DNA of 36,912 nt, taken from Gemmatimonadota bacterium (GTDB lineage: Bacteria > Gemmatimonadota > Gemmatimonadetes > JACCXV01 > JAHWKZ01). Under the pieces are notes generated by a model. That model made no database searches and was not told the origin of the DNA. It saw only the letters and a program-made list of their open reading frames with translations. Below, one piece after another: positions 12,370 through 36,912 of this stretch (position 1 is the stretch's first letter; every line of letters begins with the position of its first letter). Where the stretch lies: the NCBI GenBank assembly GCA_035698825.1, contig DASSBK010000194.1, forward strand, positions 1 to 36,912, written 5' to 3'. The translations under genes were made by a program, and so were the position numbers.

Positions 12370-12388
12370 CCAGTAGGGAGGAGAAACC

Positions 12389-13114
12389 ATGCAGCTGTCG
12401 TTACTCGAGCTTTGGGCCACAATGGGGTGGTTCGCCAAGGGGATCGTCTTCCTCCTCTTCGGCATGTCCATCTTCGCGGCCGCCATCGCGATCCGGAAAG
12501 CGGTCGAGCTGCGGCGAGGGAAGCGCGCGACCGTCAGGTTCTCCCAGCCGTTCTCCCAGGCGCTGGCCGACGAGAACTTCGACGCGGCGGCGGCGCTGGT
12601 GGAGAAGCACAAGGCCAGCCATCTCGCGGCGGCATTCCGCGGCGTGATGGAGAACCTGTTGGTCTTCGGGAAGGACCGGCACCTCAGCGCGGTGGAGATC
12701 GCGTCGATTCAGCGCACCATCGAGCTCAACTCGCTGGAGCAGCTGGCGAATCTCCGTCGCGGGTTGGGGGTTCTGGCGACGGTCGGAGCCACGGCGCCGT
12801 TCGTAGGTCTGCTGGGAACGACGATGGGCGTCGTCAACGCCTTCACGGGCATGGCCGCGGCGGGAAGCGGCGGTCTGTCGGCCATCTCGGCCGGTATCGC
12901 GGAAGCGCTCATCACGACGGCCTTCGGCCTCATGGTGGCGATCCCGGCGGTGTGGCTCTACAACTACTTCGTCAACAAGATCGAGTACGTCGGCATGGAG
13001 ATCCAGTACGCTGCGAAGGAGTTCACCGACTTCATGCTGAAGCATGAGGCGCACGTGCAGGGTCAAGCGGATCCGGTGGTGAACCGCACGCCCTCGATCG
13101 CGGCGGGAACGTGA
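12389..13114 (+). CDS. exbB: MotA/TolQ/ExbB proton-channel protein
   Basis: gggaggag lies 5 nt upstream of the ATG. Signature: GLLGTTMGVVNAF...GIAEALITTAFGLMVAIPAVWLYNYF. Confidence 0.93.
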   Translation: MQLSLLELWATMGWFAKGIVFLLFGMSIFAAAIAIRKAVELRRGKRATVRFSQPFSQALADENFDAAAALVEKHKASHLAAAFRGVMENLLVFGKDRHLSAVEIASIQRTIELNSLEQLANLRRGLGVLATVGATAPFVGLLGTTMGVVNAFTGMAAAGSGGLSAISAGIAEALITTAFGLMVAIPAVWLYNYFVNKIEYVGMEIQYAAKEFTDFMLKHEAHVQGQADPVVNRTPSIAAGT

Positions 13115-13665
13115 TCGACAGAGGCAACGGCGGCCTCACCCGGGAGGACATCCAGGAGCTGAGCGAGCACGAAGGCGCGGTCATCGCCGAGGCATTCGAT
13201 CGCTCGAACGTGATGGGCGACATCAACGTGACGCCAATGGTAGACGTCATGCTCGTGCTGCTGATCATCTTCATGGTGGTGACGCCCGCGTTGGTGGCGG
13301 GCTTCCAGGCGCAGCTTCCCGTGGGCATGAATCTGCGGGAGCGGCCGGAGGAAGAAGGGCGCACGACCCTCGGAATCGATGCCTTCGGCGCCTACTATCT
13401 GGACACGCGGCCGGTGCCGAATTGCACGGCGGCCGATCGTCAGACGGAAAGCGGACGAGCGCGGTGCGCGTCGGAATTTCGCGGTCGTTTGTCGGCCGCC
13501 TTCCAGTCGCATCCTCAGGACCGCGTGCTCTTCGTCAAGGCGCACGCAGGGCTCAAGTATCAGGAGATGATCGACGTGATGCGACTCGCCAAGGAATCCG
13601 GCGCGCGGGTCGTGGCGGCCGTGACCGAGCAGACTCCGACCGACGAAGAAGACACCGAGGATTAG
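13111..13665 (+). CDS. exbD: Biopolymer transport protein ExbD/TolR (long paralog)
   Basis: The GTG at 13111 overlaps the exbB stop (GTGA). Signature: DINVTPMVDVMLVLLIIFMV. It has an unusual ~35-aa N-terminal extension, an internal insert and an acidic tail. The ATG at 13213 is an alternative start. Confidence 0.85.
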   Translation: MIDRGNGGLTREDIQELSEHEGAVIAEAFDRSNVMGDINVTPMVDVMLVLLIIFMVVTPALVAGFQAQLPVGMNLRERPEEEGRTTLGIDAFGAYYLDTRPVPNCTAADRQTESGRARCASEFRGRLSAAFQSHPQDRVLFVKAHAGLKYQEMIDVMRLAKESGARVVAAVTEQTPTDEEDTED

Positions 13666-13674
13666 GAGGCTCCC

Positions 13675-14115
13675 ATGGCAATGGCAGTGGGTGGCAAGGC
13701 CAAGGGCTCGATGTCGGACATCAACATGACGCCGATGATCGACGTACTGCTCGTGCTGCTCGTCATCTTCATGATCGCGCAGCCGCTGCTCCAGCGCAGC
13801 ATCGACGTGCAGCTGCCGATCGAGCAGGAGGAGGAGTCGACCACCCCGGCGACGCCGATCGTGCTCGAGATCGACGCTCGCGGGAACATGAACATCAACA
13901 CACGGCCGGTCAGCAAGGACGCACTTCAGGACCGCCTCAATGAGATCTACTCCGCTCGGCCGGACAAGGTGCTGTTCGTCAAGGCCAGCGGAGAGGTCCT
14001 GTATCAGGACGTCATCGTGGTGATGGATGCGGCGCGCGGGGCGGGCGTGGAGGTTCTCGGAGCGATGCTTCCACCGGTCGGCGGCGCGCAACCGGCACCT
14101 TCGGTTCCGTCCTAG
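13675..14115 (+). CDS. exbD: Biopolymer transport protein ExbD/TolR
   Basis: aggagg at 13664-13669 precedes the ATG at 13675. Signature: DINMTPMIDVLLVLLVIFMI. Confidence 0.92.
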   Translation: MAMAVGGKAKGSMSDINMTPMIDVLLVLLVIFMIAQPLLQRSIDVQLPIEQEEESTTPATPIVLEIDARGNMNINTRPVSKDALQDRLNEIYSARPDKVLFVKASGEVLYQDVIVVMDAARGAGVEVLGAMLPPVGGAQPAPSVPS

Positions 14116-22151: not shown

Positions 22152-23318
22152 CTAGCGGCCTCCTTCGGCCGCCATCGGACGGGTGTCCTGGAACTCCACC
22201 GGCGTGCCCGGCCCTACCGCCCCCGCGAGCAGCACCGCGTTCCAGTTCGTGAGCCGCACGCAGCCGGAGGAGCTGGCATAGCCGATCGTCGCGGGATCGC
22301 GGGTGCCGTGGATCCCGTAATGAGGCTCCGACAGCTTGATCCACACGTTGCCGACGAGGTTGTTGGGCCCGGGAGGCAGATGCGTGTCGGGCTGCGTGTC
22401 GTCGACTCCGGCCAGGAGCCGCGGCTGGTAGTGGAACCACGGGTCCAGGTGCACGCCGACCACCGACAGCTCGCCGAGAGGGGAAGGGTCGTACTGCGAT
22501 CCGAGCGTCGTCGGGAAGTGGTAGAGGACGCGGCCGTCGGCGTCGAGCGCGTGGACGTAGGACCCGAGCCCCGAGACCAAGACCCGTTCGACCGGCCTGC
22601 CGGGTGCAGGCCCGCCCTCGACGGCGGGGACCGTGACGGCGTCCCCGGCGGCGAGGGCGTTCAGGTCGAGGCCTGGATTCAGTTCCTCGAGGACCTCGGT
22701 GGACGTGTGGAATCGCTCGGAGAGCTCTTCGGCGAGCGACTCGTAGCAGAGACACTCGAGCTCCGCCTGCCGGTACACACTCCCCGGGAGCGCCACGAAG
22801 GGCCCCGACACGTCGTCCTCGTCGAGGACGTGACGCACCAACGTGTCGTCGGGCTCCCCGGCCGCGACCCGCAGGAGCTCGAACGTCAGGGAATCCACGG
22901 CGCCGGTCGGCTCCAGTCCCTCGGAGACCTGGAACCACCACACCGCCTTCTCGGTGTTCTTGCCCCACCGCCCATCGATGACACCCGGGAAGAACCGCGC
23001 GCGGTCGAGCAGCGTCTGGACGCGGAGCACCTCGCGGGGGTCGCGCCGCCGGCCCATCTCCAGCCATTCGGCGGGGATCACGATCGTGTCGAGCGGGAAC
23101 TCGCGCGGGGCGGGAGGCCGCCCGAGCTTGACCGCCTCGCGCCACGAGTCGTCCATGCGGCCGGCCTCGAGCTCCGCCTCCGTCAACGTGTCCGCCGGGT
23201 TCCAGGCGACCTCGGCGCTCTCGGCGTCGGGCGGCGGCTCGCGCGGGCTCTCGGGTCCGCACGCCGCGGAGAGCGCGAGGAGCATCGCGGCTTTGGACAG
23301 GTGGCGATGGCCGGGCAT
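22152..23318 (-). CDS. L,D-transpeptidase (YkuD) with a PG_binding_1-like domain, putative lipoprotein
   Basis: The signal peptide is MPGHRHLSKAAMLLALSAAC. The PG-binding motif is VQTLLDRARFFPGVIDGRWGKNTEKAVWWFQ. The catalytic motif is YGIHGT...SSGCVRLTN. Confidence 0.9.
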   Translation of the reverse strand: MPGHRHLSKAAMLLALSAACGPESPREPPPDAESAEVAWNPADTLTEAELEAGRMDDSWREAVKLGRPPAPREFPLDTIVIPAEWLEMGRRRDPREVLRVQTLLDRARFFPGVIDGRWGKNTEKAVWWFQVSEGLEPTGAVDSLTFELLRVAAGEPDDTLVRHVLDEDDVSGPFVALPGSVYRQAELECLCYESLAEELSERFHTSTEVLEELNPGLDLNALAAGDAVTVPAVEGGPAPGRPVERVLVSGLGSYVHALDADGRVLYHFPTTLGSQYDPSPLGELSVVGVHLDPWFHYQPRLLAGVDDTQPDTHLPPGPNNLVGNVWIKLSEPHYGIHGTRDPATIGYASSSGCVRLTNWNAVLLAGAVGPGTPVEFQDTRPMAAEGGR

Positions 23319-23330
23319 GAGGCCCGGAAT

Positions 23331-24734
23331 CTAGCGGCGCGCGGCTACTCCGTCCGCAGTGGCGAGGCGGGGAATGCTACGCGCGTCCGCGACCGGCGTC
23401 TCCTCCGCCCCGATGTCGCGGAAGACGACCGGAACGCCCTCCCGCACGCGTTCGGCGAGGAAGCGCGCGTCCCAGTTCGTCAGCCGCACGCAACCGTGCG
23501 AGGTCGCGTACCCGATCGTGGCGGGCTCGGCCGTTCCGTGGATTCCGTAGTTGTCCTTCGACAGGGCGATCCAGACGACCCCAACCGGACTGTTCGGCCC
23601 CGGCCTCAGGCGCTCGTCCTCCTCGGTGTCGGGCACCTCGTCGAAGAGCGTGGGCTGCCAGTGGAACCACGGATCGAAGGCGATCGACGCGATGTGGAAC
23701 TCCCCGGTGGGCGACGGCTGGTACTTCGACCCGACGGTGGTCGGGAAGTGGTAGAGGAGCCGCCCCTGGTCGTCGAGCGCATGGAGGTAGAAGCCGTCGA
23801 TCGAAACCACGATCCGGGCGACCTCGCCGCCGGGGGACATCCGGCTCCCGCCGCCCGCGGTGTCGATCGCGGCGCCCCGCTCGACGGAAGCGATCGCGGG
23901 CGGCTCGTCGGTCTCGACGTTGGGAACGCGGAGCGAGTCGCCCGCCGCCAGCGAGTCGAGCGCGCGGCCGGCGTTCAGCGATTCCAGGAGCTCGGGCGCC
24001 GCGTGGTACCGCTCGGCGACCTTCTCGAGCGGCGATCCGTAGCACATGCACTCGAGCTCCGCCTGGGCGTGGATGTCCGCGGGGATCTGGACGAACGGGC
24101 CGGAGACGTCCTCGTCGGTCAGCCGGACGGTCCGGATGTATTCGTCGGGCCGGCCGGCCACGTCGACCAGCCGGACGAACGTCAGCGAGTCGACCTCGCC
24201 GGTCGGCTCCAGCCCGGAGGTGCGCTGCAGCCAGTAGACGGCCTGGCGCGTGTTCTTGCCCCACTTGCCGTCCAGGATCCCGGGAGAGAACGGCGAGCGG
24301 TCGAGCAGCACCTGGACGTACAGAACCGAAGGCCCCTGCGCCTCCCCGGAGACCGGCAGCCTGACCGCCGGCAGGGCGGAGTCGGGGGCGGCGGGGGACA
24401 GGCGCTCGAAATCGGCATAGGTCTCGGGGAACGATTCGACGACCTCGAATCGCGGCGGCGTGAGAGGCTCGACCGCGACGGTGTCGAGCCCCGCGAGCCG
24501 GAGGTCGCTGGTGTCGGAGGAGACGACCCCCAGCCACGTCGAGTCGTGACGCCCCAGCTCGATGTCCTCGAGCGAGAGCGGCGGCTCGTTGTTCCAGTAC
24601 GCGCTCGCCTCGCCGGACTCGCCGCCCCCTTCGCCGACCGGGATGACCGGCTCCTCCGTCTCCCGGCCGTTCGTGCACGCGAAGAAGATCGCGATGATCG
24701 CCGCCACCGCGGCGCGGATCCAGATCGCTCGCAT
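23331..24734 (-). CDS. L,D-transpeptidase (YkuD) with a PG_binding_1-like domain, putative lipoprotein (paralog)
   Basis: The ATG at 24734 is preceded by ggagga with a 6-nt spacer. The N-terminus is MRAIWIRAAVAAIIAIFFAC. Motifs: VQVLLDRSPFSPGILDGKWGKNTRQAVYWLQ and YGIHGT...SHGCVRLTN. Confidence 0.9.
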   Translation of the reverse strand: MRAIWIRAAVAAIIAIFFACTNGRETEEPVIPVGEGGGESGEASAYWNNEPPLSLEDIELGRHDSTWLGVVSSDTSDLRLAGLDTVAVEPLTPPRFEVVESFPETYADFERLSPAAPDSALPAVRLPVSGEAQGPSVLYVQVLLDRSPFSPGILDGKWGKNTRQAVYWLQRTSGLEPTGEVDSLTFVRLVDVAGRPDEYIRTVRLTDEDVSGPFVQIPADIHAQAELECMCYGSPLEKVAERYHAAPELLESLNAGRALDSLAAGDSLRVPNVETDEPPAIASVERGAAIDTAGGGSRMSPGGEVARIVVSIDGFYLHALDDQGRLLYHFPTTVGSKYQPSPTGEFHIASIAFDPWFHWQPTLFDEVPDTEEDERLRPGPNSPVGVVWIALSKDNYGIHGTAEPATIGYATSHGCVRLTNWDARFLAERVREGVPVVFRDIGAEETPVADARSIPRLATADGVAARR

Positions 24735-24999
24735 CGACATTCCTCCCCGTCCAGCGTTTTCGGGCGGGGATCGAGCGATCCGCCGGCCCACCGTCACCCG
24801 ACCCGAGTATCGGGGAGCCGGAGCGCGGCGACCGTAAGGGCCCTTACCCGCGGGCGGAGAAAATCAGCGCGCGCGGATCCGGAAGATCTTCTGGGACCGG
24901 GCGGGGGATGAGCCGTAGGCCCCCCACACCTCGCCGGTGCGGGGGTCGATGGACTGACGCTCGCGTCCGAAACGTCGTTCCACTATCCTGTCGCCCCCC

Positions 25000-27009
25000 A
25001 TGACGCTTCCGTTCCGATACATCGCGGCCCGGACCGGGCGGATCGCCGTCCGGCTGGCGGCTGCCGCGCTTGCGGTGATCGCGCTGGCCGCTCCCCTCCA
25101 CGCCCAGGCGAGCCTCGCGCAGCCTCGCGGACTCCGGCCCTCCGACGGGCTCCTCTCGCGCCCCGATCTCCAGCGGCTGGTCGATGCGCAGACCGCGCGC
25201 GACGGGGAGACACTCGTCGCCGCCCTGTCGGATTCCGATCCCGTGGTTCGCGCTCGCGCGGCCTTCGCGCTCGCGTCGGTGCAGGACACGACGGCCGTGC
25301 CCGCGCTGGTCCTGGCCCTGGCCGATCCCGAGGCCGCCGTCCGCGCCGACGCGGCGTTCGCGATCGGCCTCACCGCGGACTCGACCGCTGAGGACGCGCT
25401 CCTGGACGCGCTCGACGGGGAGAGCGACGCCGCGGTGCGCGCCGAACTGTTCGAGGCGCTGGGGCGGACCGGCGGGAGCGCATCGCTAGCCGCGCTCGCC
25501 GCCATGAGCGCCGACGGCGACGAGCGCGCGCTCCTCGCGCTGGCCATCGGCCGCTACGGGGCGCGCGGAATCCACGACCCTCGAGCCGTTGTGCGCCTGT
25601 CGACCCTGGCGGCCGACCCCGATCCCCTGGTCGCCGCCGATGCCGCTTGGTACTTCGCCCGCGCGGACACCGCGGCCTGGAGCTCCGGCGTACCCGATCT
25701 CCGGCGCGTTCTCGACGGCCTCGATCCGAAGGGCGACGACGCCCAGGCCGCGATCCATCTCCTGCTCGCGCTCGGCCGCCTGGACCGGCCGGAGGACAGG
25801 GACCGGCTCGCGGCATGGCTGGAGGGCGCCGCCGACTGGCGGGCGCGGGTCGCCGCTGCACGCGCGCTGACGGGTTTCACCCGCGACTCGATCGTAACCG
25901 GCAAGCTCATGCGGGCGCTGGACGATCCACGCATCCACGTGGCCATCGAGGCCGCTCGCACGCTGTCGGCGGAGGATTCGCTCGACCCGGACGTGGAGAC
26001 CGAGATGGGGCGGCGCGTCATGACGCGCCCCCACCCGTGGCAGGTCTCGGTCGAGCTCCTCCCCGCCGTGGCGAAGGCCGGCCACTCGCGGCTCATTCTC
26101 CTCTGGCTCCTGTGGCTGGACGGCAACCCTCCGCGCGACGTGACCGCCTACGCCGCCGGGCTGCGCTCGCTGGGGTGGGGAGACGGACGCGAGGCGTACC
26201 TCGTACTCCAGCACGCCGCCACCCGGCCGGAGCCCCGCATCAGCGCTGCGGCGCTGGAGGCGCTCGCCCAGTGGTGGACGCGCGGCGTTCGCACCGAAGA
26301 AGTCACTCCCGAGCGGTACTACGCGGTGTTCGACCGGGCACTCCGGTCCCGCGACGTCGCCGCCGTCGCCACGGTCGCTCCCGTGCTGGCCGACTCCGCG
26401 CTGGTGGCGATGGGCTCGGTGGCCCTCCTCCAGGAGGTGTACGCCGACCTCGAGGCACCCGCCGACGACGAGGCGATCGCCGCCGTGCGCGAGGCGCTCG
26501 AGGCGGCCGGCGCGTCCGTTCCGCCGGCTCCTTCGCCCGCGCCGGTCCGCGCGATCGACTGGGAGTACCTGGAGCGGCGTGGTCCGCGGCCATCGCTACG
26601 CCTCGAAACGGCCCGCGGGCCGATCGAGGTCGAGCTCGACGCGGAGGCGGCCCCGCAGACGGTCGAGACCGTCCTCAAGCTCGCCGAGGACGGCCGGTAC
26701 GACGGCGTGGAGTTCCATCGAGTGGTGCCCGGCTTCGTCATCCAGGGAGGCGACGTCGGTCGGGGCGACGGCTGGGGGGGACCGGGCTTTGCGATCCGCA
26801 GCGAGCTGACGAGGATCCCCTACGTTCGCGGCACGCTGGGGATGGCGAGCGCCGGAAAGGACACCGAGGGGTCGCAGTACTTCGTGACCCACGGCATGCA
26901 GCCGCACCTCGACGGCCGCTACACGGCGTTCGGTCGCGTGGTATCGGGGATGGAGGTGGTCGACGCGATCCTGGTCGGCGACCGCGTCCAGCGCGTGGTC
27001 GTTCCCTAG
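25000..27009 (+). CDS. Secreted HEAT-repeat protein fused to a C-terminal cyclophilin-type peptidyl-prolyl isomerase
   Basis: The signal peptide ends in ALAAPLHAQA. HEAT-like repeats are present (DPVVRARAAFALASV, DPEAAVRADAAFAIGL and others). The C-terminal 160 aa read FHRVVPGFVIQGGD...GTLGMASAGKDTEGSQYFVTH...LDGRYTAFGRVVSGMEVVD. Confidence 0.9.
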   Translation: MTLPFRYIAARTGRIAVRLAAAALAVIALAAPLHAQASLAQPRGLRPSDGLLSRPDLQRLVDAQTARDGETLVAALSDSDPVVRARAAFALASVQDTTAVPALVLALADPEAAVRADAAFAIGLTADSTAEDALLDALDGESDAAVRAELFEALGRTGGSASLAALAAMSADGDERALLALAIGRYGARGIHDPRAVVRLSTLAADPDPLVAADAAWYFARADTAAWSSGVPDLRRVLDGLDPKGDDAQAAIHLLLALGRLDRPEDRDRLAAWLEGAADWRARVAAARALTGFTRDSIVTGKLMRALDDPRIHVAIEAARTLSAEDSLDPDVETEMGRRVMTRPHPWQVSVELLPAVAKAGHSRLILLWLLWLDGNPPRDVTAYAAGLRSLGWGDGREAYLVLQHAATRPEPRISAAALEALAQWWTRGVRTEEVTPERYYAVFDRALRSRDVAAVATVAPVLADSALVAMGSVALLQEVYADLEAPADDEAIAAVREALEAAGASVPPAPSPAPVRAIDWEYLERRGPRPSLRLETARGPIEVELDAEAAPQTVETVLKLAEDGRYDGVEFHRVVPGFVIQGGDVGRGDGWGGPGFAIRSELTRIPYVRGTLGMASAGKDTEGSQYFVTHGMQPHLDGRYTAFGRVVSGMEVVDAILVGDRVQRVVVP

Positions 27010-27025
27010 CGAGCGAGCTCCAGCT

Positions 27026-27868
27026 CTAGGGCTGAGCGATGTGGCGGAGAAAGCGCGGAGCCGCGACGACCTTGCCGCGGCGATCGGAGGGGATCCTGTC
27101 GGCTGCGTCCTCGAGCGCGTCCAGGCGGTCGTCCGGGTCCGGATGGGTCTTCTCGAGCAGCGACAGCGACGCGTCGTCGGAGTGCTCCTCGAGCCGGGCG
27201 ATGAACCGCTGGATCCCTCCCGGATCGTAGCCCGTGTCGGAGGCCATGCGCATGCCGATCGTGTCGGCCTCGATCTCGTCCTCCCGGCCGAGCCCCAGGA
27301 ACAGGACGTTCGCACCCACGCCGATCGCCTGCTCGAGGTACTGCTCGCCGGTGATGTCGACCCGTTCGGCCGCCTCGCTGATGCCGAACTCGGTCCGCGC
27401 CCGATCCTGGATCTCCTCGATCACGTGCCGCTGGTTGACGTGGACGACCTCGTGCGCGAGGACGCCCGCCAGCATCGACTCGTCTTCCATCAGTGCCAGC
27501 GCGCCGCGGGTGACGAACACGTAGCCGCCCGGCGCGGCGAAAGCGTTGACCTCGTCGCTGTCGAGGACCGCGAACCGGTAGACGATGTCGGGGCGCGGAT
27601 CGGCCGACGCGACCGCGTTGCCGACGAGGTTGACGTATTCGGTCAGCGCGGGATCGCGGGAGATCGTGTAGTGGCCCGCCACGGTCGCGGCGACGCCGCG
27701 GCCGATGTCGATCTCCTGCGCGGTCGAGATCGGAACCACCGCCGCGCCCACCTTCTCGGCCGTGTCCATCACCTGTCCGGCCCTCTCCGTCACCTCGCGC
27801 CAGATCTGGGCCTGCGACGGGGCCGCGGCGGCGAGCAGGAGGATCGCGGCGGACAAGAACCGGATCAT
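27026..27868 (-). CDS. Periplasmic M48-family Zn-metalloprotease
   Basis: The ATG at 27868 overlaps the upstream stop (ATGA). The signal peptide is MIRFLSAAILLLAAAAPSQAQ. The HExxH motif is LAHEVVHVNQRH. EADTIGM and THPDPDDRL are also present. Confidence 0.9.
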   Translation of the reverse strand: MIRFLSAAILLLAAAAPSQAQIWREVTERAGQVMDTAEKVGAAVVPISTAQEIDIGRGVAATVAGHYTISRDPALTEYVNLVGNAVASADPRPDIVYRFAVLDSDEVNAFAAPGGYVFVTRGALALMEDESMLAGVLAHEVVHVNQRHVIEEIQDRARTEFGISEAAERVDITGEQYLEQAIGVGANVLFLGLGREDEIEADTIGMRMASDTGYDPGGIQRFIARLEEHSDDASLSLLEKTHPDPDDRLDALEDAADRIPSDRRGKVVAAPRFLRHIAQP

Positions 27869-28650
27869 GCGCCGGCCTCCTCGGGAAGGGCGTCGTACGG
27901 CGACAGCCGGCCTTCGAGCCGGAACCGTTCGAGCGCTGCGGGGCTCACCCGCTGGTCTTCCATCCACTCCACCGCCGCGGGATCGGGGGTGACCGACACC
28001 GTTCCCTCGGCGGTCTCGACCTGATCGACGCCGCGAGCTCCCGCCGCGGCCGTCACGTTAGGATCCCGACCCGGGCTGAACTGGGCCAGGCCCTCGCGCA
28101 CGAGGCCGCTTCCCCCCTGAGGGAGCCGCAGCGCGAAGGCCTTCTCCTCGTCGAAATCGGTGGGCTCCGAAGCGCGCAGGACGACCGCCGCTACGCCGCC
28201 GTTCGCCGCGTCGACGGTCCGGTACGCGGGCGTTTCGCCCGGCGGTCCGGCGAGCACGAGCGCGAGCCAGGCGTCCGATGCCCTGGCGCTCTCCGCGAGC
28301 GGGGTCGCGCCGACCTTGGTGACCAGCCAGTATCCATCGCCGTCCGACACGATGACCACGGGCTCCTCGAGCGCGTCGCCGCGCGCGGCGCGCAGCTCGA
28401 GGCGCTCCCGGTCGCCGTCCTGGTAGGCCCAGACCCGGCCGCCGAACTTCGAGACCTGCGCCGCGTCCGCGGCCGCCGTCCCGCTCTCGGGAACGAGCCA
28501 TGTCTCCTGCCACGCGTGCTTGCCGCGCGGCATCGCCTCCCGTCGGGCGTCGAGCGCCGCCTGCAGAGCCTGGGCGAGGGAGGGAACCGGGAAGGCGGCC
28601 GCGATCGCGAAGGCGAGGGTCGCCCCTCCCGCGAGTCGTCGCATCCTCAT
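27865..28650 (-). CDS. Secreted hypothetical protein (261 aa)
   Basis: The ATG at 28650 overlaps the upstream stop (ATGA), and its own stop overlaps the M48 start. The signal peptide is MRMRRLAGGATLAFAIAAAFPVPSLAQA. I recognise no family with confidence. Confidence 0.7.
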   Translation of the reverse strand: MRMRRLAGGATLAFAIAAAFPVPSLAQALQAALDARREAMPRGKHAWQETWLVPESGTAAADAAQVSKFGGRVWAYQDGDRERLELRAARGDALEEPVVIVSDGDGYWLVTKVGATPLAESARASDAWLALVLAGPPGETPAYRTVDAANGGVAAVVLRASEPTDFDEEKAFALRLPQGGSGLVREGLAQFSPGRDPNVTAAAGARGVDQVETAEGTVSVTPDPAAVEWMEDQRVSPAALERFRLEGRLSPYDALPEEAGA

Positions 28651-30233
28651 GGCCGGGCTCCCGCGCGGAAGCCGAAGAACTCCCAGATGCGCGACAGGAT
28701 CTGGCCCTTCTCGATGTCGCCGCCTTGGCTCGCCGCCTCGTGCAGGGCGGCCAGCGTCGCGTCCCGTTGCTCCCGGCGGGTCGAGAGAAGCTCGGAGATC
28801 TGCTCGGCGATCTGCGGGTTCTGGAGCAGGGTCTTGCGGAACGCCTCGCGATCGATGACCACGAACTGCGTGGGCAGGGTCGCCGTCACGGTGGCGGTCC
28901 TCTCGGCTCCTGTCATCAGCGCCATCTCTCCGATGATAGTGGATGGTCCCAATTCGGCCAGCTTTTCGCTCCTGCCGTCGGCGCTCACCGCGACGGTCAC
29001 GCTCCCCTCGTCGATGATGTACAGGGAATCTCCGGGCTGTCCCTGGCGCATGACGACCTCCCCCGTGAAATAGCGCTCGACGCGCGCTCGCGACGCCAGC
29101 GAGCGCGTCTCCTGATCGGTCAGCGGGTCGAACAGGGGAACCTCGCGAAGCTGTTCGAATATGCGGTCCTCGGCCGCGCGGGCTGCCGCCTTCTCCGTCT
29201 CCTCCGTGATCGTGCGCAGATAGAGGTGGCGGATGGGGTACGGGATCTCGATGCCGTGCCGGTTGAACGAGTACCAGATGCGCGTCATGAAGGCGTTCTT
29301 GATCTCCTCGAGCTCTGCGTAGTCCTTGATCCAGTACTTGACCTCGTAGATGATCGCGAAGTCCTGGAAGTGTTTCGTGCGCACGTGAACCCGGGGCATC
29401 TTGAGGATCGTCGTGGTCTGGTCCGCGGCCTCTTCGATCGCCCGCCTGACGTCGGCGGGCGGATGGCGATAGTGGACGCCCATCTCCGCCAGAACCGCGT
29501 GGACGCGTGTGGGAGCGCTGTAGTTCACCACCACGTCCTTGGAGATGAGCGAGTTGGGAATGATCACCAGGTCGTTGGCGCGCGTCCGCAGGATCGTGGC
29601 CCGCCACGAGATGTCCGTGATCACTCCCTCCATCTCTCCGAACCTGACCCAGTCGCCGACCTTGAACGACCGTTCGGTCTGAAGGGAGAGGCCGCTGAAG
29701 ACGTTGCCGAGCGTGTCCTGGAGCGCGAGGCCGATGATGACGGAGAGCACGGCGGAGGTGGTGAACAGGCCTGCCACGTCGAGATCCGTCTGATAGATCA
29801 GGATCATCATGACGCCGACGAAGAACAGCACCATGATCGTGACGTCCCGCAAGATGTTCGGGATCTCGAACTTGAGCTGGTTCACGAGAAGGAGGTCGAC
29901 GAGCAGGATCGATACGATCAGCAGGAGGGAGAGCAGCCCCACGACGAGCATGAGGATGCTGACGATCTGGAACGATGGATTGACGACGAGGCCGCGGATC
30001 TCCTCGCCGGTGGGCGTCAGAATCGTCCCCGTGATGCGAGGCGGGAGCTCGGCGAGCACGACGCGCAGGATCACGAAGACGAGAAGCAGGCCGACGACGA
30101 GAAGCGCCCGCCGCCGCACGATGTGGTCCTTGCTGAGCCCGCGGATGATCAGCCCGGCGATCGCGAGCATCGCCACGACGGCGTAGAGAAGCCCGGACCC
30201 GGAGTAGAATTGATCGAGCGACAATGGGCTCAT
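28647..30233 (-). CDS. MscS-family mechanosensitive channel with a C-terminal cyclic-nucleotide-binding domain (bCNG-like)
   Basis: The ATG at 30233 gives MSPLSLDQ. Several TM helices are followed by the MscS core (GLALQDTLGNVFSGLSLQTERSFKVGDWV...VIIPNS). The cNMP-binding domain has a phosphate-binding cassette, IIGEMALMTGAERTATVTA. Confidence 0.9.
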   Translation of the reverse strand: MSPLSLDQFYSGSGLLYAVVAMLAIAGLIIRGLSKDHIVRRRALLVVGLLLVFVILRVVLAELPPRITGTILTPTGEEIRGLVVNPSFQIVSILMLVVGLLSLLLIVSILLVDLLLVNQLKFEIPNILRDVTIMVLFFVGVMMILIYQTDLDVAGLFTTSAVLSVIIGLALQDTLGNVFSGLSLQTERSFKVGDWVRFGEMEGVITDISWRATILRTRANDLVIIPNSLISKDVVVNYSAPTRVHAVLAEMGVHYRHPPADVRRAIEEAADQTTTILKMPRVHVRTKHFQDFAIIYEVKYWIKDYAELEEIKNAFMTRIWYSFNRHGIEIPYPIRHLYLRTITEETEKAAARAAEDRIFEQLREVPLFDPLTDQETRSLASRARVERYFTGEVVMRQGQPGDSLYIIDEGSVTVAVSADGRSEKLAELGPSTIIGEMALMTGAERTATVTATLPTQFVVIDREAFRKTLLQNPQIAEQISELLSTRREQRDATLAALHEAASQGGDIEKGQILSRIWEFFGFRAGARP

Positions 30234-30247
30234 GGACGGGGGGAATC

Positions 30248-32257
30248 TTAGCCGCGGTCCGGACCCTTTTCCAGCGTGTGAACCGCGACCGGACGGCCAC
30301 GTCCTTTGACCTGGACGACCCCGCGGGGGCTGGTGACGAGGTCGGGAGGCAGCTGCGCCGCGGTGTCGGCGGAGACGAGAATGCGGGTACCGAGCTCCTT
30401 GTTCATGCCCTCGAGCCGGCTGGCGAGGTTCACGGAGTCTCCGATCGCGGTGTAGTCCATCCGGCGCTCCTCGTCGCCGATGAATCCGACCACCGCGTCG
30501 CCGGTGTGGATTCCGATGCCGATCTCGAGGGCCGGCCGGCCGGCCGTCTTCCAGCCGGCGTTGAGCTCCTCGAGCCGCGCGAGCATGGCCAGACCCGCGC
30601 GGACGGCGTGCTCGGCGTGCTCGGGATCGGCGAGCGGCGCGCCGAAGAACGCCATGAGGCCGTCGCCGATGTACTTGTCGAGCGTCCCGCGGTGCAGGAA
30701 CACGAGCTCGACCATGGCTGTCAGGTACTCGTTCAGCGTATCGACCACGATCTCGGGAGCGAGGTTCTCCGACAGCGTCGTGAAGCCGCGCACGTCGCTG
30801 AAGAGGATCGTCAGCTCGCGGCGGTCTACCCGCCGGTAGAGGCCGAAACCATCCTCCGCGATCGCTTCGACGACGTCGGGGGGGATGAACTTTCCAAACG
30901 CCTGCTTGATCTCGCGGTTGCGCCGGCCTTCGGTCAGCGAGCGTCCAGCCATGGCGCCCGCGTAGGCGAGCACCGCGCCCGTCACCGGGCCGGCCCAGGG
31001 CAGGATCCAACCGGTCGCCGCGAACGCGCCCACGGCGATCCCCGAGATCAGGACGACGGTCGCGGTGAGCGCCACGCCGCCGCGGCCGATGGAGCGCACG
31101 TGCGCGAAGAGAAGACCCGCGAGAAGCGGGACGAGCAGCACGACCGCCCACGCCGCCGCGGGGGGCAGATCGCGCAGGAAGTCCCGCGACCGGATCGTGT
31201 CGAGCATGGTCGCGTGGAGAAAGACCCCGGGCTCGGTGGCGCTGAAAGGGCCCGCGACGAGGTCGCCGACGCCGGTCGCGCTGGATCCGACCAGTACGAT
31301 GCGGTCGCGGAACACCGCCGGGTCCAGATCGGGTTCGGCGCCCAGGGCGATCTGGCCGTAGGCGTTGAGCACGTCGTGGACGGGGATCACCGGATAGGGG
31401 CGCTCGGAGTAGGACCCGCGCCAGTGGGGCCTCAGGCGGCCGCCGTCGAGCGGGATCGCCCGGCCGTCGAGCGCGAGCGCGCCGTCTCGAGCCGCCAGGC
31501 GCGCGTATCCCGTCGCGCCTTCGAGCTCGGCCGCCAGGGCGAGCGTCGGATACGCGCGCCCGCCGAAGCCCAGCATCAGAGGCTCGCGCCGCTCGACCCC
31601 GTCGGCGTCGGGGAACCGGTTGATCGCCCCTACCCCCGCCGATGCGGCGAGCAGGGGCTCGACCGGCAGGTCGACGGTGCCGTAGGATCGAGCCCAGGCG
31701 GCCGGAGGGTCGATCGGAAGCGCGAAACGCTCGAGAAGCGCGAGCCGCTCTCCGCGGTTCAGCATCGCGCGCTCGAACGCCGACGCCGCGGCGGAATCCG
31801 CTCCGGGCTCGTCGAAGACGACGGCCGAGACCGTCGGCGGCCCCGAGGCGAGGGCAGCGGCGAAGGCCGAGTCGGCCTCCGGCCGCGCGATATCCGGCTC
31901 GCCGAACAGGACGTCGAAGCCCACCACCCGCGGCTCCCCCAGTTCCAGGAGCTCGATCAGCGCGGCGTGCGCGTTTCGGGGCCACGGCCAGCGGCCGAGC
32001 TCGTCCTGGTAGAGACGCAGGGAGCGGTTGTCGATGTCGACGATGAGGATCGACGAGTCGGCGACGGCCGGCCCGGTTAGCGCTCGCTCGGCACGAAAGC
32101 GGAGGTCCTCGGTGCGGGCCTCGACGGAGCGGAAGGCGTCGGACAGCGCGGCCAGCCCCACGAGACAGGCGGCGAACCCTCCCGCCGCGAGGCCGACGAG
32201 GAGTCGTTCCGCGCTTCGCGACGGAGGACTCGAGCGACGCGGCCCCGGGCTCGTCAT
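30248..32257 (-). CDS. CHASE2 sensor-domain class III adenylate/guanylate cyclase
   Basis: The ATG at 32257 overlaps the upstream stop (ATGA). An N-terminal TM is followed by a ~300-aa extracytoplasmic region ([11 protein letters not shown]...WPWPR) and three TM helices. Cyclase motifs: [28 protein letters not shown] and [12 protein letters not shown]. Confidence 0.92.
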
Positions 32258-32568
32258 CCGCTGGTCACGTCCGTGAACGCGTTGTGATCGTCGATGATGC
32301 CCCGAAGCGCGGCCTTGCACTGGTCTGCCGCGGCGTACTGGTTCGCCGCGTGCCCGGTGCGGAGATCGCTACCCGTGATCGTGCCGGCCACCTCGAGCGA
32401 CCAGTCGACGCGCTCACCGGTGCGCTCCAGATGCGCGGACCACTCCAGCGAGCCGGCACGACCGGCGGCCGCCCATTCGCGAGGCACGAGCGAGTCGCCC
32501 ACGACCTCGAAGCGGACGCGTGGATAGCCGACCGCCCGCCGGCCTCTTCTGCGCCGCCACCATCTCAC
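32254..32568 (-). CDS. Small hypothetical protein (up to 104 aa) translationally coupled to the cyclase
   Basis: Its stop overlaps the cyclase ATG. GC3 is high throughout. No signal peptide and no family recognised. The start is uncertain: GTG at 32568 gives an Arg-rich N-terminus, and in-frame GTGs at 32502 and 32487 are alternatives. Confidence 0.45.
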
Positions 32569-32748
32569 GTGGCGGGCGCATCCTCGTCGACGAGTCGCAT
32601 CGGGGAACCAACCTAGAGGCGGAGGAGTCCGCGGGCTAACCTAGACATCGGTCAGAGTGTGCATTACCGTCGCGACGTGGCCGACGTCCGCGCCGCGTTC
32701 GCCGGCCGCCTCGTCGACAGGAGACTCTACGGGAACGGAGGGGAATCG

Positions 32749-33042
32749 ATGACGAAGGAAGAGTTCGCGGAGAAGCTGGCTGGCAAGATCGATATTCCGA
32801 AGTCGAAGGCGCACGAGGCGATCGACGCGATCTTCTCGACCGAGCCGGGCCAGGGGATCATCGCCGTCGAGCTTGACGCGGGCCGGGACTTCACGGTCAC
32901 CGGTTTCGGTACGTTCCACACGCGGCAGCGCGCGTCGCGCCAGGGTCGCAACCCCAAGACCGGCGAGTCGCTTACGATTCCGGCCATGAAGCTGGCCGCG
33001 TTTCGCGCGGGCAAGGGGTTGAAGGAGCGGGTCCGGCGCTAG
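32749..33042 (+). CDS. HU/IHF-family nucleoid-associated DNA-binding protein
   Basis: ggagggg lies 6 nt upstream of the ATG at 32749. Motifs: MTKEEFAEKLA...FGTFHTRQRASRQGRNPKTGESLTIPAMKLAAFRAGKGLK. The protein has a longer-than-usual insert before the beta-arm. Confidence 0.9.
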   Translation: MTKEEFAEKLAGKIDIPKSKAHEAIDAIFSTEPGQGIIAVELDAGRDFTVTGFGTFHTRQRASRQGRNPKTGESLTIPAMKLAAFRAGKGLKERVRR

Positions 33043-33174
33043 CGATCGCCGAGCGCCGCCACCACGGGCAGAGTAGGCAAGGGGTATCCCCGGCTGCCGA
33101 AATCGATTATGCTCGAACGACGAGGTGCCCTTCCCGGCCGCGGGTCTTCCGCACCTCCCAGAAGGTCGTGCCGC

Positions 33175-34434
33175 TTGATCCTCCCGCGGATTCGCAGTCT
33201 GCTCGCCGTAGCCTTGGTGGCCGCCTGTGGCGGCGGCGTCACGGGTCCCGCCGATCTGGCCCCCGTTCCCCAGATCGCGATCCGGCCGGCCGCCGACGGC
33301 GGCGTCATCGCCCCCGAGCCGGTACCGATCGATTCTGACGCGGATGGGGTCCTCGACGGCCAGGACAACTGCACCTACACCCCGAACGCCGATCAGGCCG
33401 ATGACGATGCGGACGGCATCGGGGACGCGTGCACGGGCGACCTCGACGGCGACGGCGCGCCCGACACCGAAGACAATTGCGTGGATTTCCCGAATCCGGA
33501 CCAGGCCGATTCCGACGGCGACGGAATCGGAGATGCCTGCGGAGAGACGGTTGTAGACGAGGACGCCGACGACGACGGGATCCTCGACGTCGAGGACAAC
33601 TGTCCCTTCACGCCCAACCCCGACCAGGGCGACTCCGACGGCGACGGCGTAGGGGACGCCTGCGCCGGTGAAGGAGGGGGAGGCGGCGGCGGCTGTGTGC
33701 TGCCCGATGGAACCGTGCCGCCCGACGACGGGAGCGCCGAGCCCGAAACGTGTCCAGAAGACGATTCGGACGGAGACGGAGTTCCGGACGCGGAGGACAA
33801 CTGCCCCTTCGCCTTCAACCCCGACCAAGAGGATGCGGACGCCGACGGAGCCGGGGACGTCTGTGACGGCGACGGAGAAGATGGCGGCTGCGTGCGTGCC
33901 GATGGAACCGTGCCGCCCGACGACGGCAGCACGGAGCCCGGGTCGTGCCCCGTGGAGGACTCAGACGGCGATGGGGTAGCCGACGCCGACGACAACTGCG
34001 CGTTCGTGCCCAACCCCGATCAGGCCGATTCCGACGGGGACGGCGCCGGCGACGCGTGCGCCGGGGACGTGGGAGGTGGGGAGGATCCCGGGCCCCCTGA
34101 AACGGGCGACCTGGATGCAGACGGAGTGGCCGACGGTCAGGACAACTGCACCTGGAGGACCAACCCGGATCAGGTCGACGACGATGGGGACGGCATGGGC
34201 GACGCCTGCGATTTCGTCGTGGGCCCAGGCTGGAACGAAGCCCAGAACGGCGCCGTCAGCACCGATCGGGACATCGACGGGCGGATCGACGCGGAAGACA
34301 ACTGTCCCGCGGTACCCAACCGCTTCCAGCTGGACCGGGACCGGGACGGCTTGGGCGACGCCTGCGATCCCTCCAGTCCTCTAAGTCGGCTGATCGACGG
34401 ATTCTTCTCCTGGTGGCGGAACCGTCAGCCCTGA
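33175..34434 (+). CDS. Thrombospondin type 3 (TSP3) repeat calcium-binding lipoprotein
   Basis: The TTG at 33175, with agaagg 9 nt upstream, gives (M)ILPRIRSLLAVALVAAC, a lipobox. The ATG at 33109 is an alternative, but the extension has only ~59% GC3. Seven units of DxDxDGxxDxxDNCxxxxNxxQxDxDxDGxGDxC are present. Confidence 0.88.
   Translation: MILPRIRSLLAVALVAACGGGVTGPADLAPVPQIAIRPAADGGVIAPEPVPIDSDADGVLDGQDNCTYTPNADQADDDADGIGDACTGDLDGDGAPDTEDNCVDFPNPDQADSDGDGIGDACGETVVDEDADDDGILDVEDNCPFTPNPDQGDSDGDGVGDACAGEGGGGGGGCVLPDGTVPPDDGSAEPETCPEDDSDGDGVPDAEDNCPFAFNPDQEDADADGAGDVCDGDGEDGGCVRADGTVPPDDGSTEPGSCPVEDSDGDGVADADDNCAFVPNPDQADSDGDGAGDACAGDVGGGEDPGPPETGDLDADGVADGQDNCTWRTNPDQVDDDGDGMGDACDFVVGPGWNEAQNGAVSTDRDIDGRIDAEDNCPAVPNRFQLDRDRDGLGDACDPSSPLSRLIDGFFSWWRNRQP
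33688..34077 (+). repeat. Internal tandem duplication, 2 x 195 nt (65 aa), inside the TSP3 gene
   Basis: The units are 33688-33882 and 33883-34077 (GGCVxxDGTVPPDDGSxEPxxCPxEDSDGDGVxDAxDNCxFxxNPDQxDxDxDGAGDxC). An exact 26-mer, gatggaaccgtgccgcccgacgacgg, occurs at 33706 and 33901. Confidence 0.85.
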
Positions 34435-34455: not shown

Positions 34456-35229
34456 TCAACCGCCCCGGATCTCCGTCAGCTTTTGCCTCGCGTTTTCGTT
34501 TTCCGGGTCCAGCGCGAGCGACTTCTCGTAGGCCTCGACGGATCGGACCGAGTCCCCCACCGCCAGATACCCCTCGCCGAGACTGTCCCACGCGTTGCCG
34601 GAATCGGGGAACTGTTCGGCGTTGAGCTGGAAGATCGCGACGGCGTCCGCTGCCTTGCCCTGCTCGAGCAGGCCGTAGCCGAACATGTTCAGCACGTTCT
34701 CGCCGAAATCGAACGCGCCTCGGCCGTAGAACTGCTCGCGGAGCTCGCGGTAGGCGGCGACGGTGGCGTCGATCCCCTCGGCTGCGTGGATCTCGCCCAG
34801 CTCCTCGTCGAGGGTCGTGGGCCGCGGCCGTCCGCGGTGGCAGGTGTGGCACCACATGTTCACGGGCTTGGGACCGCTGGCGTCGATCGTGCCCAGCGTG
34901 TCGTTGATCACGCCGAGCATGCGGTACATCGTGCGCGCGATGCTCTTCTGGGGGATGCTGTCCGAAACGAAATCGTACGTCGTGAGCGGCTGGCCTTCCT
35001 CCCCGACGTGACAGTACGAGCACCGGACGCCGAGCGCGCGGGTGAACCCGATCATGATCGGCCGCAGGCGCTCGGGCGGCGTGTCCTCGGGCAGGACCTG
35101 CAGGTTCTCGCCGCGCTCGGGCCACTGCCACTGCTGGGCCCACCCCGTCGACGGCGCGACGATCGCCGGCGCGGCCAAGAACGCGAGCCCCGCGATCGCG
35201 GCTCTAAAGGCACTGCGAGATTTCTTCAA
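34456..35229 (-). CDS. Secreted diheme c-type cytochrome (photosynthetic-reaction-centre cytochrome-c-like domain) fused to C-terminal TPR repeats
   Basis: The TTG at 35229 is preceded by aggagg with a 7-nt spacer. The signal peptide is (M)KKSRSAFRAAIAGLAFLAAPAIVA. Two CxxCH motifs are present (CSYCH, CHTCH) in the context ARTMYRMLGVIN...CHTCHRGRPRP. The TPR-like tail reads AWDSLGEGYLAVGDSVRSVEAYEKSLALDPEN. Confidence 0.8.
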   Translation of the reverse strand: MKKSRSAFRAAIAGLAFLAAPAIVAPSTGWAQQWQWPERGENLQVLPEDTPPERLRPIMIGFTRALGVRCSYCHVGEEGQPLTTYDFVSDSIPQKSIARTMYRMLGVINDTLGTIDASGPKPVNMWCHTCHRGRPRPTTLDEELGEIHAAEGIDATVAAYRELREQFYGRGAFDFGENVLNMFGYGLLEQGKAADAVAIFQLNAEQFPDSGNAWDSLGEGYLAVGDSVRSVEAYEKSLALDPENENARQKLTEIRGG

Positions 35230-35552
35230 GCTCCGGCCTCCTGTTCGATTCGAGTGCCGATACGGTGCCACATCCCGGTCCGCGCTGGGGACCGGCCGCT
35301 GTCCCGATGAAGGGTGCTCTCGGCGAGCCGTTCGGGGCAACCCGCCCGCGGGGACCGGCGAGCGACGTGGTGCGAGCGGCGACACCGGCGCGGCCGTCGT
35401 TACGCCGAGTCGCGTGACGTTTGGCTCCGCCGGCCGCCCGACCTATGTTGGACGGGCCGCGAGGAGGAACCGGCGGCGGGGAGGCGACGGAACGAGCTTT
35501 GCTTTCTCTGCCGGCGGATCTTCCTGAACGGCATTCCGAGGGGAGGCAGCGA

Positions 35553-36912
35553 ATGCGTGTACACCTGATCAACCCCAACCACCTCTCGTACGGAATCGGC
35601 GTCATCACGCCCCGCTGGCTCTATGTGCTCGCAGCGGCCACGCCCCGATCCTTCGGCGATCCGATCGTCGTCGACGAGTCGCTCGCGCCTGTGGACCCAT
35701 CCCGCATACAACCGGGAGATCTGGTGGGGATCGGGATCCACACGGGCAACGCCCTGCGTGGCTACGAGGTGGGCCGCATGGCACGAGAGCGTGGGGCGTA
35801 CGTCGTCTACGGGGGGATCCACGCCACCCTCTACCCGGAGGAGGCGTACGAGCTCGGTGGTGCGCACGCGGTCGTCAAAGGCGATGGGGATGTCGTCTGG
35901 AGCCGGGTCGCCGCCGACTGCGCGAACGGAGGACCGCAACGCCTCTACGAAGGGGGTCGGATCGAGGGCGACGAGTTCCTGCCCGCGCGATGGGATCTCA
36001 TCCCGCCCGACAGCTACATGTGGGCCTCGGTGCAGACCGTGCGCGGCTGTCCCAAGCATTGCTCGTTCTGCTCCGTGTGGCGGACCGACGGCCAGAAGCC
36101 GCGCCAGCGCGTCTCCGACGCGGTGATCCGGGAGATCGTCGAGCTGCGACGCATGGGATTCCGGTTCATCGCGCTGGCCGACGACAACTTCTATCCGGTC
36201 ACGCTCCGCGACCTCGAATTGGCCGAGCGTCGCAGCGACCCGAGTCGATTCCACGAGCTGAAGGCGGTTCGTGACGAGCGCTTCGAGCTCATGGCGCGGC
36301 TCGCCGAGCTCCCCGAGGACATGGTGTTCTTCACGCAGATCACCATGGAGGCGGCCGAAGACCCCGAGTTCCTGGACGCCATGCGGAAGGCGAACATCAA
36401 GGGTGCCCTCGTGGGTGTGGAATCGGTCACGCGAGAGGGGCTGAAGGCGGTCTTCAAGGATTTCAATCTCAGCGGCGAGAACCTCGTCCAGCGGCTGCGG
36501 ACGTTCCGGGAACATGGCGTCCACGTCCTGGGGTCCTTCATCTTCGGCCTGCCCACCGATCGCCCCGATACCTTCGAGGCCACGGTCGCGCTGGCCGAGA
36601 AAGCGGGGCTGACGTTCGCTCAGTTCGTGATGCTGACGCCGTTCCCGGGCACGATCGATTTCGCGAGCTGGGAGGAGAGCATGGCGGACGACCCGACTCG
36701 GATCGCCGGCATTCCCCTGACCCGGCATTGGCTCATCCCGCAGGCCCTTCGACCGAAGATGTTCATGCCGCACCCCGTGATGTCGGCCGACGAGATCCGG
36801 GGTCGGACCCAGGAGGTGTGGGATCGCTTCTATGCGCTGCGCGCGATCTGGAGTCGCTCCGGCAGCCTCGTGTCGCTGCGCGGGCGGCTCGCGTTCGTGC
36901 TCATCTCCAAGC
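35553..36912 (+). CDS. B12-binding-domain radical SAM protein (3'-partial, runs off the window)
   Basis: gaggggagg ends 6 nt before the ATG at 35553. My hand translation of frame +3 finds no stop to nt 36912. The N-terminal B12-binding-type fold reads VHLINPN...GIGIHTGNA...VVYGGIHATL. The radical SAM motif CPKHCSFC lies at 36048-36071. The C-terminal region (EVWDRFYALRAIWSRS...LAFVLISK) resembles DUF4070-type tails. This gene is not listed in the supplied ORF track. Confidence 0.88.
   Translation, partial: MRVHLINPNHLSYGIGVITPRWLYVLAAATPRSFGDPIVVDESLAPVDPSRIQPGDLVGIGIHTGNALRGYEVGRMARERGAYVVYGGIHATLYPEEAYELGGAHAVVKGDGDVVWSRVAADCANGGPQRLYEGGRIEGDEFLPARWDLIPPDSYMWASVQTVRGCPKHCSFCSVWRTDGQKPRQRVSDAVIREIVELRRMGFRFIALADDNFYPVTLRDLELAERRSDPSRFHELKAVRDERFELMARLAELPEDMVFFTQITMEAAEDPEFLDAMRKANIKGALVGVESVTREGLKAVFKDFNLSGENLVQRLRTFREHGVHVLGSFIFGLPTDRPDTFEATVALAEKAGLTFAQFVMLTPFPGTIDFASWEESMADDPTRIAGIPLTRHWLIPQALRPKMFMPHPVMSADEIRGRTQEVWDRFYALRAIWSRSGSLVSLRGRLAFVLISK

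Follow-up and report, generated by a model that had tools for sequence, protein, structure and literature searches.

We analysed a 36,912-nucleotide (nt) stretch of DNA from a Gemmatimonadota soil bacterium (GenBank assembly GCA_035698825.1, contig DASSBK010000194.1, positions 1 to 36,912 of the forward strand; hereafter the window) and focused on a minus-strand block at 27026–32568, in which a putative receptor cyclase is encoded beside an ion channel with a cyclic-nucleotide-binding (CNB) domain, a secreted protein of a new family and a metalloprotease. The window has a G+C content of ~70% and homologues of its genes bear Gemmatimonadota names. The block comprises five open reading frames (ORFs), all with uninterrupted translation, which we refer to as g1 to g5 in the order of their transcription. 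As an initial annotation, drawn from the letters of this DNA, had described, the five co-directional genes are joined by three ATGA stop/start overlaps (32254–32257, 28647–28650 and 27865–27868) and by a 14-nt gap (30234–30247) that separates g2 from g3; the four junctions read GGATGACG, TAA-14 nt-ATG, CCATGAGG and GCATGATC. For each of the five genes, the G+C content at third codon positions (GC3) is 0.83–0.93 in the proposed frame, and Pfam returned the same domains that had been named for the cyclase (CHASE2), the channel (MscS plus a cyclic nucleoside monophosphate (cNMP)-binding domain) and the protease (M48). A sigma-70 promoter scan of 26800–33100 found none and a scan of the same interval for intrinsic terminators gave two terminator-like matches, within chance expectation; neither method is informative in this phylum. 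Nothing matched when the window was scanned for tRNAs and against Rfam.

The second gene of the block, g2 (30248–32257, minus strand, 669 amino acids (aa)), encodes a predicted CHASE2 receptor adenylate cyclase. Its CHASE2 sensor domain (PF05226, 6e-54) spans residues 32–382 (31112–32164) and its class III catalytic domain (Guanylate_cyc, 3e-26) residues 481–656 (30290–30817). Hydrophobic segments lie at residues 18–42 and 363–420, and the order along the polypeptide is a first transmembrane (TM) helix, a periplasmic CHASE2 domain, a hydrophobic membrane block and a cytoplasmic class IIIb catalytic domain, CHASE2 being flanked by a TM helix on its N-terminal side and by a TM block on its C-terminal side, as is characteristic of CHASE2 receptors. 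The best matches among Protein Data Bank (PDB) sequences were CyaB of Pseudomonas aeruginosa (3r5g, 2e-36) and CyaC of Spirulina (1wc0, 4e-34), both of class IIIb. The metal-binding Asp motifs FSDVRGFT (486–493) and DKYIGDG (527–533) are kept in every orthologue examined, and the catalytic domain further carries a motif with Thr603 and an Asn. Lys528 (in DKYIGDG) and Thr603 (in DY-T-AIGD) are aligned to positions 74 and 156 of the 1wc0 chain, which, with the construct offset, we take to be the adenine-specifying pair K1057 and T1139 of CyaC, and both also align with the equivalent residues of CyaB in 3r5g. With Lys and with Thr in place of Asp, the hallmark of the subclass, g2 is assigned on its sequence to the class III adenylate cyclases, subclass IIIb. 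The initial annotation had read the specificity pair as Lys and Asp; the alignments to 1wc0 and 3r5g place Thr603, not the Asp of MDY, at the second position. The product that it had predicted, cyclic AMP (cAMP), is also the one predicted from the Lys/Thr pair. Stimulation by bicarbonate is typical of class IIIb cyclases, and g2 may be responsive to it as well.

Downstream of the 14-nt gap, g3 (28647–30233, minus strand, 528 aa) encodes an MscS-type channel with a C-terminal cNMP-binding domain, supported by Pfam matches to MS_channel_2nd (PF00924, 1.5e-21), MS_channel_3rd (PF21082, 1e-9) and cNMP_binding (PF00027, 2e-21) and by matches in the PDB of residues 75–351 to YnaI/MscS structures (6e-20) and of residues 356–490 to the CNB domains of PKA and PKG (down to 1e-27). 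The phosphate-binding cassette, described as intact in the initial annotation, is found at residues 433–449 (28887–28937, minus strand; IIGEMALMTGAERTATV), where the stretch GEMALMTGAERTA holds the Gly-Glu pair and the Arg; these residues are kept in the g3 orthologues except at locus L019, where the alignment breaks down. This succession of MscS pore-lining helix, beta domain and C-terminal CNB domain with an intact cassette is that found in bCNG (bacterial cyclic nucleotide-gated) channels. The bCNG members described (Caldwell 2010 and Malcolm 2012, as cited in a 2026 review, PMC13591265) are mostly cyanobacterial. From these g3 differs in lying in an operon with a receptor cyclase, in having five N-terminal hydrophobic segments, a feature in which it resembles YnaI, and in being closest to YnaI. 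The review presents the physiological role, the upstream cyclase and the nucleotide gating of bCNG channels as unexplored.

The fourth gene, g4 (27865–28650, minus strand, 261 aa), encodes a secreted periplasmic protein with a signal peptide at residues 1–27 (N-terminus MRMRRLAGGATLAFAIAAAFPVPSLAQ, read from the sequence and without a lipobox Cys), a beta-rich N-domain at about residues 28–175 and a conserved C-terminal tail at about residues 176–261. Its homologues form 81 clusters, down to 50% identity, and an all-against-all profile search (47 hits) reached remote relatives. Twenty-six members of the family gave only noise against Pfam (E up to 1), g4 corresponds to no NCBIfam family and its comparison with PDB sequences likewise returned noise only. 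An AlphaFold2 (AF2) model of g4 has a mean confidence (pLDDT) of 81, with values below 50 at residues 180–208, after which comes a small C-terminal unit of a hairpin plus helices. The invariant columns of the family (A203, G204, R206, G207 and V208) fall inside this low-confidence segment, and the motif around them, VTAAAGARGVD (residues 199–209; 28024–28056, minus strand), is the most conserved of the family. This motif, which contains AGxRGV, recurs in the fused proteins as well as in remote members of the family and is a candidate site for recognition by a protease or a receptor. A Foldseek search with the model placed LolA first (4ki3, E 1.3e-3, probability 0.92, template modelling (TM) score just 0.23–0.30), followed by LprG (E 0.13) and, far down the list, RseB (E 0.79), and the N-domain is possibly LolA-like. 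We also considered g4 as a partner of the FecR/NsrA type and rejected this: none of the 26 members hit FecR (PF04773), and hhalign gave a probability of 0.2% against both NsrA and an Ensifer FecR protein.

The last gene, g5 (27026–27868, minus strand, 280 aa), encodes a secreted, soluble M48 zinc metalloprotease (Peptidase_M48, PF01435, 3e-26). The HExxH zinc motif (HEVVH, residues 139–143), present in every orthologue examined, is followed by the downstream Glu ligand within EDEIEAD (196–202), and the N-terminus MIRFLSAAILLLAAAAPSQAQ is read as a signal peptide without a Cys. Like BepA and LoiP, periplasmic or outer-membrane M48 enzymes of Escherichia coli that serve in envelope quality control, g5 has an HExxH-bearing M48 catalytic domain and is exported to the envelope; it differs in lacking the TPR domain of BepA and the lipobox of LoiP and in being dedicated to a cyclase operon. 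Neither identification was tenable for g5 itself, as its 280 aa gave no TPR hit and scored 115 against a cut-off of 570 for the BepA model (NF052400), and in the absence of a lipobox Cys it scored 37.8 against a cut-off of 365 for the LoiP model (NF052399).

We compared the block with ~45 related loci, drawn from metagenomes and from a GTDB scan in which each species was represented by one genome. Loci with separate cyclase and g4 genes (the split type) were compared by tblastn over 24 species-level loci, all from Gemmatimonadota. The g4 gene adjoins the M48 gene in 24 of 24 species, and a same-strand CHASE2 cyclase gene lies upstream in every locus whose contig reaches far enough. The MscS-cNMP gene is directly upstream of g4 in 20 of these loci; it is shifted downstream of the M48 gene in two (L013 and L024), and none was seen within 10 kb in L026. 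In five species the cyclase and channel genes are 1.8–2.9 kb apart, with unrelated opposite-strand insertions, whose genes we identified for L010 and L014. The orthologues retain the catalytic and binding motifs.

A second arrangement joins the cyclase and g4 physically. Here CHASE2, the cyclase domain, a hydrophobic helix and g4 form one polypeptide, for which we found seven representatives at 50% identity and ~85 clusters at 90% identity, 900–1019 aa in length and named Longimicrobium or Longimicrobiales. The extra helix ahead of g4 fits the expected topology, because the cyclase domain is cytoplasmic and g4 periplasmic, and would put the fused g4 back in the periplasm beside CHASE2. In nine of nine loci the start of the following gene lies 4 nt ahead of the stop of the fused gene; seven of these loci contain the following gene in full, and in every one it encodes M48. 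The same 4-nt overlap of the M48 start with the stop of g4 is seen in the window, L001 and L003, so that M48 is translationally coupled to g4.

More distant loci, collected in a metagenome scan built on a four-sequence alignment, carry a remote split type. Its g4-like family has ~316 aa, the same N-domain motif and a tail of the form VTATAGARGVDEE...ME...FLKEGKLGxY, and in all six metagenome loci that are long enough the g4-like gene lies between a CHASE2 cyclase gene (product ~38% identical to g2) and an M48 gene. A NUDIX hydrolase gene follows the M48 gene in two remote loci (L040, 4502–4900; L041, 9926–10402), which could bear on nucleotide turnover or be a coincidence. In locus L037, where the proteins are 35–37% identical to those of the window, the order is cyclase, M48 (with a 4-nt overlap) and MscS-cNMP, and no g4 gene was found. 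The M48 protein of this locus is longer (373 aa; 8182–9303), and its C-terminal extension contains SESKSAEVTGSGASRGVDTERNAKGG...INAFKKEGNLK, in which GASRGVD...INAFKKEGNL resembles the motif of the g4 tail. Against a profile of the g4 tail, the extension scored 16.1 bits, the top ORF of its locus, where the maximum in 2000 composition-matched shuffles was 8.1. In L046, a contig of 71% G+C, a short stretch at 448–660, directly upstream of an M48 gene, matched just the tail of g4 (39% identity over query residues 234–308); the g4/M48 pair may thus occur here in a further reduced form.

The co-localization of CHASE2 cyclase, MscS-cNMP and M48 genes, whose conservation the initial annotation had named as a test, is kept across the 24 Gemmatimonadota species and in L037. 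As a conserved unit its five-gene order did not hold, g1 being found only in close relatives and the channel varying in position; the cyclase, g4 and M48 genes did. On gene content and order, the conserved unit is thus a triad of CHASE2 cyclase, g4 and M48, not the whole of the block. A cNMP effector is a frequent but exchangeable addition to this triad, taking the form of the MscS channel in two distant lineages and of a patatin lipase in another. The latter is encoded on a 3.68-Mb Longimicrobiales-type contig (L033, 13569–15425), where a 618-aa protein combining cNMP_binding, an NTE P-loop and a patatin lipase domain follows the cyclase–g4 fusion and the M48 gene, overlapping the M48 stop by 4 nt; in this one genome, the lipase would be an alternative cAMP effector in place of the channel. 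Both the channel and the lipase act on or in the membrane, which suggests a module feeding membrane-directed effectors.

The first gene of the block, g1 (32254–32568, minus strand, 104 aa, GTG start), encodes a small cytoplasmic protein with a basic N-terminus. In comparisons with L004, L005 and L007, its dN/dS is 0.12–0.19 in frame and above 2 off frame; its GC3 is 0.83, and L004, which has an ATG at the corresponding position, supports its start. Its homologues form 30 clusters, every one at least 65% identical. The AF2 model (pLDDT 78) has a four-strand beta-meander and a long C-terminal helix; it had no Foldseek match in the PDB at E<=0.001, and g1 belongs to no Pfam or NCBIfam family. The two ORFs that the initial annotation had left without a function, g1 and g4, thus both have homologues and both pass coding tests, and we regard g1 as a real gene and as a recent, lineage-specific addition outside the conserved core. 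Outside the g1 clade, the place upstream of the cyclase gene is taken by unrelated genes or by one for a DUF6982 protein. This conserved protein (Pfam 7e-12) is encoded immediately ahead of the cyclase in many of the species without g1 (L011, L012, L014, L016, L017, L019, L021, L022 and L027; for example, 5692–6153 of L022). A conserved small upstream partner was considered and dropped: the ORF that precedes the fused cyclase in L032 encodes a TM segment plus a coiled coil and is unrelated to g1.

Several features adjoin the block. The ~90 nt at 32569–32658, between g1 and a divergent HU-like gene (32659–33042), are 88% identical across four species and hold two invariant copies of TCTAGGTT(A/G)G, ~30 nt apart; this may be a promoter element of the operon or a site at which a regulator acts on it. 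On the other side, a secreted protein with HEAT repeats and a cyclophilin peptidyl-prolyl isomerase (PPIase) domain (25000–27009, plus strand) is encoded convergently with g5, 16 nt separating the stop codons, and the HEAT-PPIase gene is near the module in many relatives. Beyond it lie two tandem YkuD L,D-transpeptidase genes with PG_binding_1 domains (22152–24863, minus strand).

We consider it very probable that these genes form one functional module. Our favoured explanation, to which we would attach about an even chance, is that the module is a dedicated unit for converting an envelope signal into cAMP. Within it, g4 and M48 more probably belong to the input side, as partners of the CHASE2 sensor, than to a set of parallel outputs, because in Longimicrobiales g4 and the cyclase form one polypeptide; such a fusion is classic Rosetta-stone evidence for physical cooperation of g4 with the receptor on its periplasmic side. 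We postulate that g4 modulates CHASE2 in the periplasm or binds to it, that M48 would act on the flexible tail of g4 with its invariant AGxRGV, and that cleavage there could switch the state of the cyclase. In a characterized relative, CyaD1, removal of CHASE2 leads to constitutive production of cAMP, so that CHASE2 is inhibitory there (PMC5498481), and other CHASE2 receptors with dedicated periplasmic partners, described below, offer a precedent. The tail stays on the protease in L037, where the rest of g4 is absent, which suggests that what the protease recognizes is the tail. The resulting cAMP would bind the CNB domain of g3 and alter the gating of the channel, an envelope cue thereby being coupled to ion or osmolyte flux. 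The specific proteolytic switch is the more tentative part of this proposal, and we hold it to be somewhat less than evenly probable.

A particular form of the switch, which we think improbable as it stands, would be a bacterial protease-activated receptor cyclase. M48 would cut free or tethered g4 at AGxRGV and so release or unmask the tail as a ligand or anti-ligand of CHASE2, either the N-domain of g4 or the protease sensing the cue and the ensuing pulse of cAMP gating the MscS-type channel or activating the patatin lipase.

Other explanations of the same loci can be weighed against these observations. The initial annotation had placed proteolysis beside ion flux as a parallel output, and one could suppose that the cyclase is the sole sensor and that channel, g4 and protease are co-expressed for envelope maintenance, with no feedback on the cyclase. 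All four genes are indeed co-directional and tightly packed, M48 proteases such as BepA and LoiP act in envelope quality control and g5 has weak NCBIfam similarity to them, and the neighbouring genes (the two YkuD L,D-transpeptidases and the secreted HEAT-cyclophilin) are envelope-related too. We nevertheless judge this unlikely, since g4 is covalently fused to the cyclase throughout one order, which argues for the input side, and the g4–M48 pair stays with the cyclase where a cNMP effector is not nearby; plain co-expressed outputs would hardly be expected to fuse with a receptor or to track it across 35–40% identity. The fusions, together with the recurrence of the triad in differing flanks, make a strong case both against a pure output role and against neutral synteny, in which the genes would be neighbours by descent with no functional coupling. 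The latter could draw on the fact that the flanks (HEAT-cyclophilin and YkuD) are also syntenic in several relatives and that gene order is generally kept in the lineage, yet the triad persists with completely different flanks, is joined by 4-nt overlaps and becomes a single fused polypeptide in one order, and we find mere descent highly improbable.

Two further explanations keep g4 at the receptor and differ in what the protease does. If g4 were a pro-domain or assembly chaperone of the CHASE2 receptor that M48 processes once in biogenesis, with no signal involved, the fusion and coupling evidence would apply just as well, and an invariant motif in a flexible segment suits a processing site. 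A folded N-domain of ~150 residues, kept across lineages, is however large for a simple pro-peptide, and it is dispensable in L037, where the tail remains with the protease; constitutive maturation has, in our estimate, a small share of the probability, although sequence data do not separate regulated from constitutive cleavage. Alternatively, g4 could be a ligand-binding co-sensor, a LolA/LprG/RseB-like binder of lipids or lipoproteins that reports to CHASE2, with M48 merely clearing damaged or unliganded g4. RseB is a stress sensor of the LolA fold that gates proteolysis of RseA, and the model of g4 matches LolA (probability 0.92), LprG and, far lower, RseB. The weakness of the fold match (TM score 0.23–0.30), the presence in L037 of protease and tail without the N-domain, and the fact that the tail and not the barrel is the most conserved part of the family make such a co-sensor rather improbable.

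The envelope-signal-to-cAMP explanation itself has to be set against several observations that count against it. Co-transcription of the block would have to be read from the gene overlaps alone, and the channel is not an obligate part of the module: it is absent next to the fused-type loci, and in most fused-type and remote loci no cNMP effector was seen nearby. The modelled fold of the g4 N-domain matches LolA weakly (E 1.3e-3), and the tail match in L037 is short, with 26 aligned residues and an E value of 0.0015 within the locus. That M48 cleaves g4 is something we infer, and the substrate of the protease could be another protein. According to the review cited above (PMC13591265), the bCNG channels so far tried gave E. 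coli no protection from hypo-osmotic shock, and the nucleotide gating of these channels is there described as structurally uncharacterized.

Parts of the module resemble systems that are already known, namely receptor cyclases with co-encoded CNB effectors and CHASE2 receptors with periplasmic partners. A close parallel is CyaD1/CyaD2/CyaK of Sinorhizobium meliloti, which combine CHASE2 with a class III cyclase as in g2 (39% identity over the C-terminal 57%), where the gene of an extracytoplasmic partner, nsrA, abuts cyaK in a manner comparable to g4 and where cAMP is read by a CNB-domain protein (Clr), as we propose for g3. The two systems differ in that NsrA is a 1200-aa FecR plus TPR protein unrelated to g4 (hhalign 0.2%), that the S. 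meliloti locus contains no protease and that its effector is a Crp-like transcription factor encoded elsewhere and not a co-encoded channel. An Ensifer CHASE2 cyclase gene is flanked by FecR and TPR genes, and CHASE2 histidine kinases occur in conserved operons with a LysM/FecR periplasmic protein (Burkholderia ‘BiofilmReg’, PMC5192318). The likeness of these loci to the block lies in a CHASE2 receptor encoded beside a secreted accessory protein; they differ in that the accessory protein is FecR and not g4, that there is no M48 and that the output is a two-component phosphorelay and not cAMP. By analogy only, RseA/RseB/DegS also bring together a periplasmic protein (with the LolA fold in RseB and possibly in g4), a periplasmic protease and a membrane signalling protein, and in the logic proposed for both, a protease acts on a segment in the periplasm and thereby switches an output in the cytoplasm. 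The two are not related in sequence, DegS is an S1 protease and g5 an M48 protease, the output is release of a sigma factor as against cAMP, and in the block cleavage is our supposition.

Other genes of the window stand apart from the module. A large partial ORF (1–3891, plus strand; >1296 aa) contains an LCCL domain (6e-28), a domain described mainly from eukaryotic extracellular proteins. At 7664–11393 (minus strand), a gene for an extracytoplasmic function (ECF) sigma factor (Sigma70_ECF) adjoins one for a Ser/Thr protein kinase of 945 aa that has a long TPR region. Their stop-to-stop ORF frames (7664–10501 and 10446–11393) overlap by 56 nt, and the two may be a pair in which the kinase controls the ECF factor. 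Next, at 11584–14115, comes a TonB/ExbB/ExbD cluster. Upstream of the block, 33109–34434 (plus strand) encodes a 441-aa secreted protein made almost wholly of thrombospondin type 3 (calcium-binding) repeats (4e-48), and 34456–35385 (minus strand) a secreted protein with CxxCH motifs and a weak match to the cytochrome c subunit of photosynthetic reaction centres (CytoC_RC, 2e-6), adjoined by a radical SAM gene (35418–36911).

The g4 family, its fusion to a cyclase and its obligate M48 partner were not found in the literature searched, in which no paper mentions CHASE2 and M48 together; the nine bioRxiv matches to CHASE2 were unrelated. The ligand of CHASE2 has remained unknown since the domain was defined (PMC5192318). 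The strictly conserved triad of cyclase, g4 and M48, sometimes fused, gives a concrete hypothesis, the proteolytic control of a receptor cyclase, and these loci pair a bCNG-type MscS channel with a specific cyclase encoded directly upstream. Were the protease-activated form of the module true, it would be the first defined input mechanism for CHASE2 and would provide a physiological trigger for bCNG channels.

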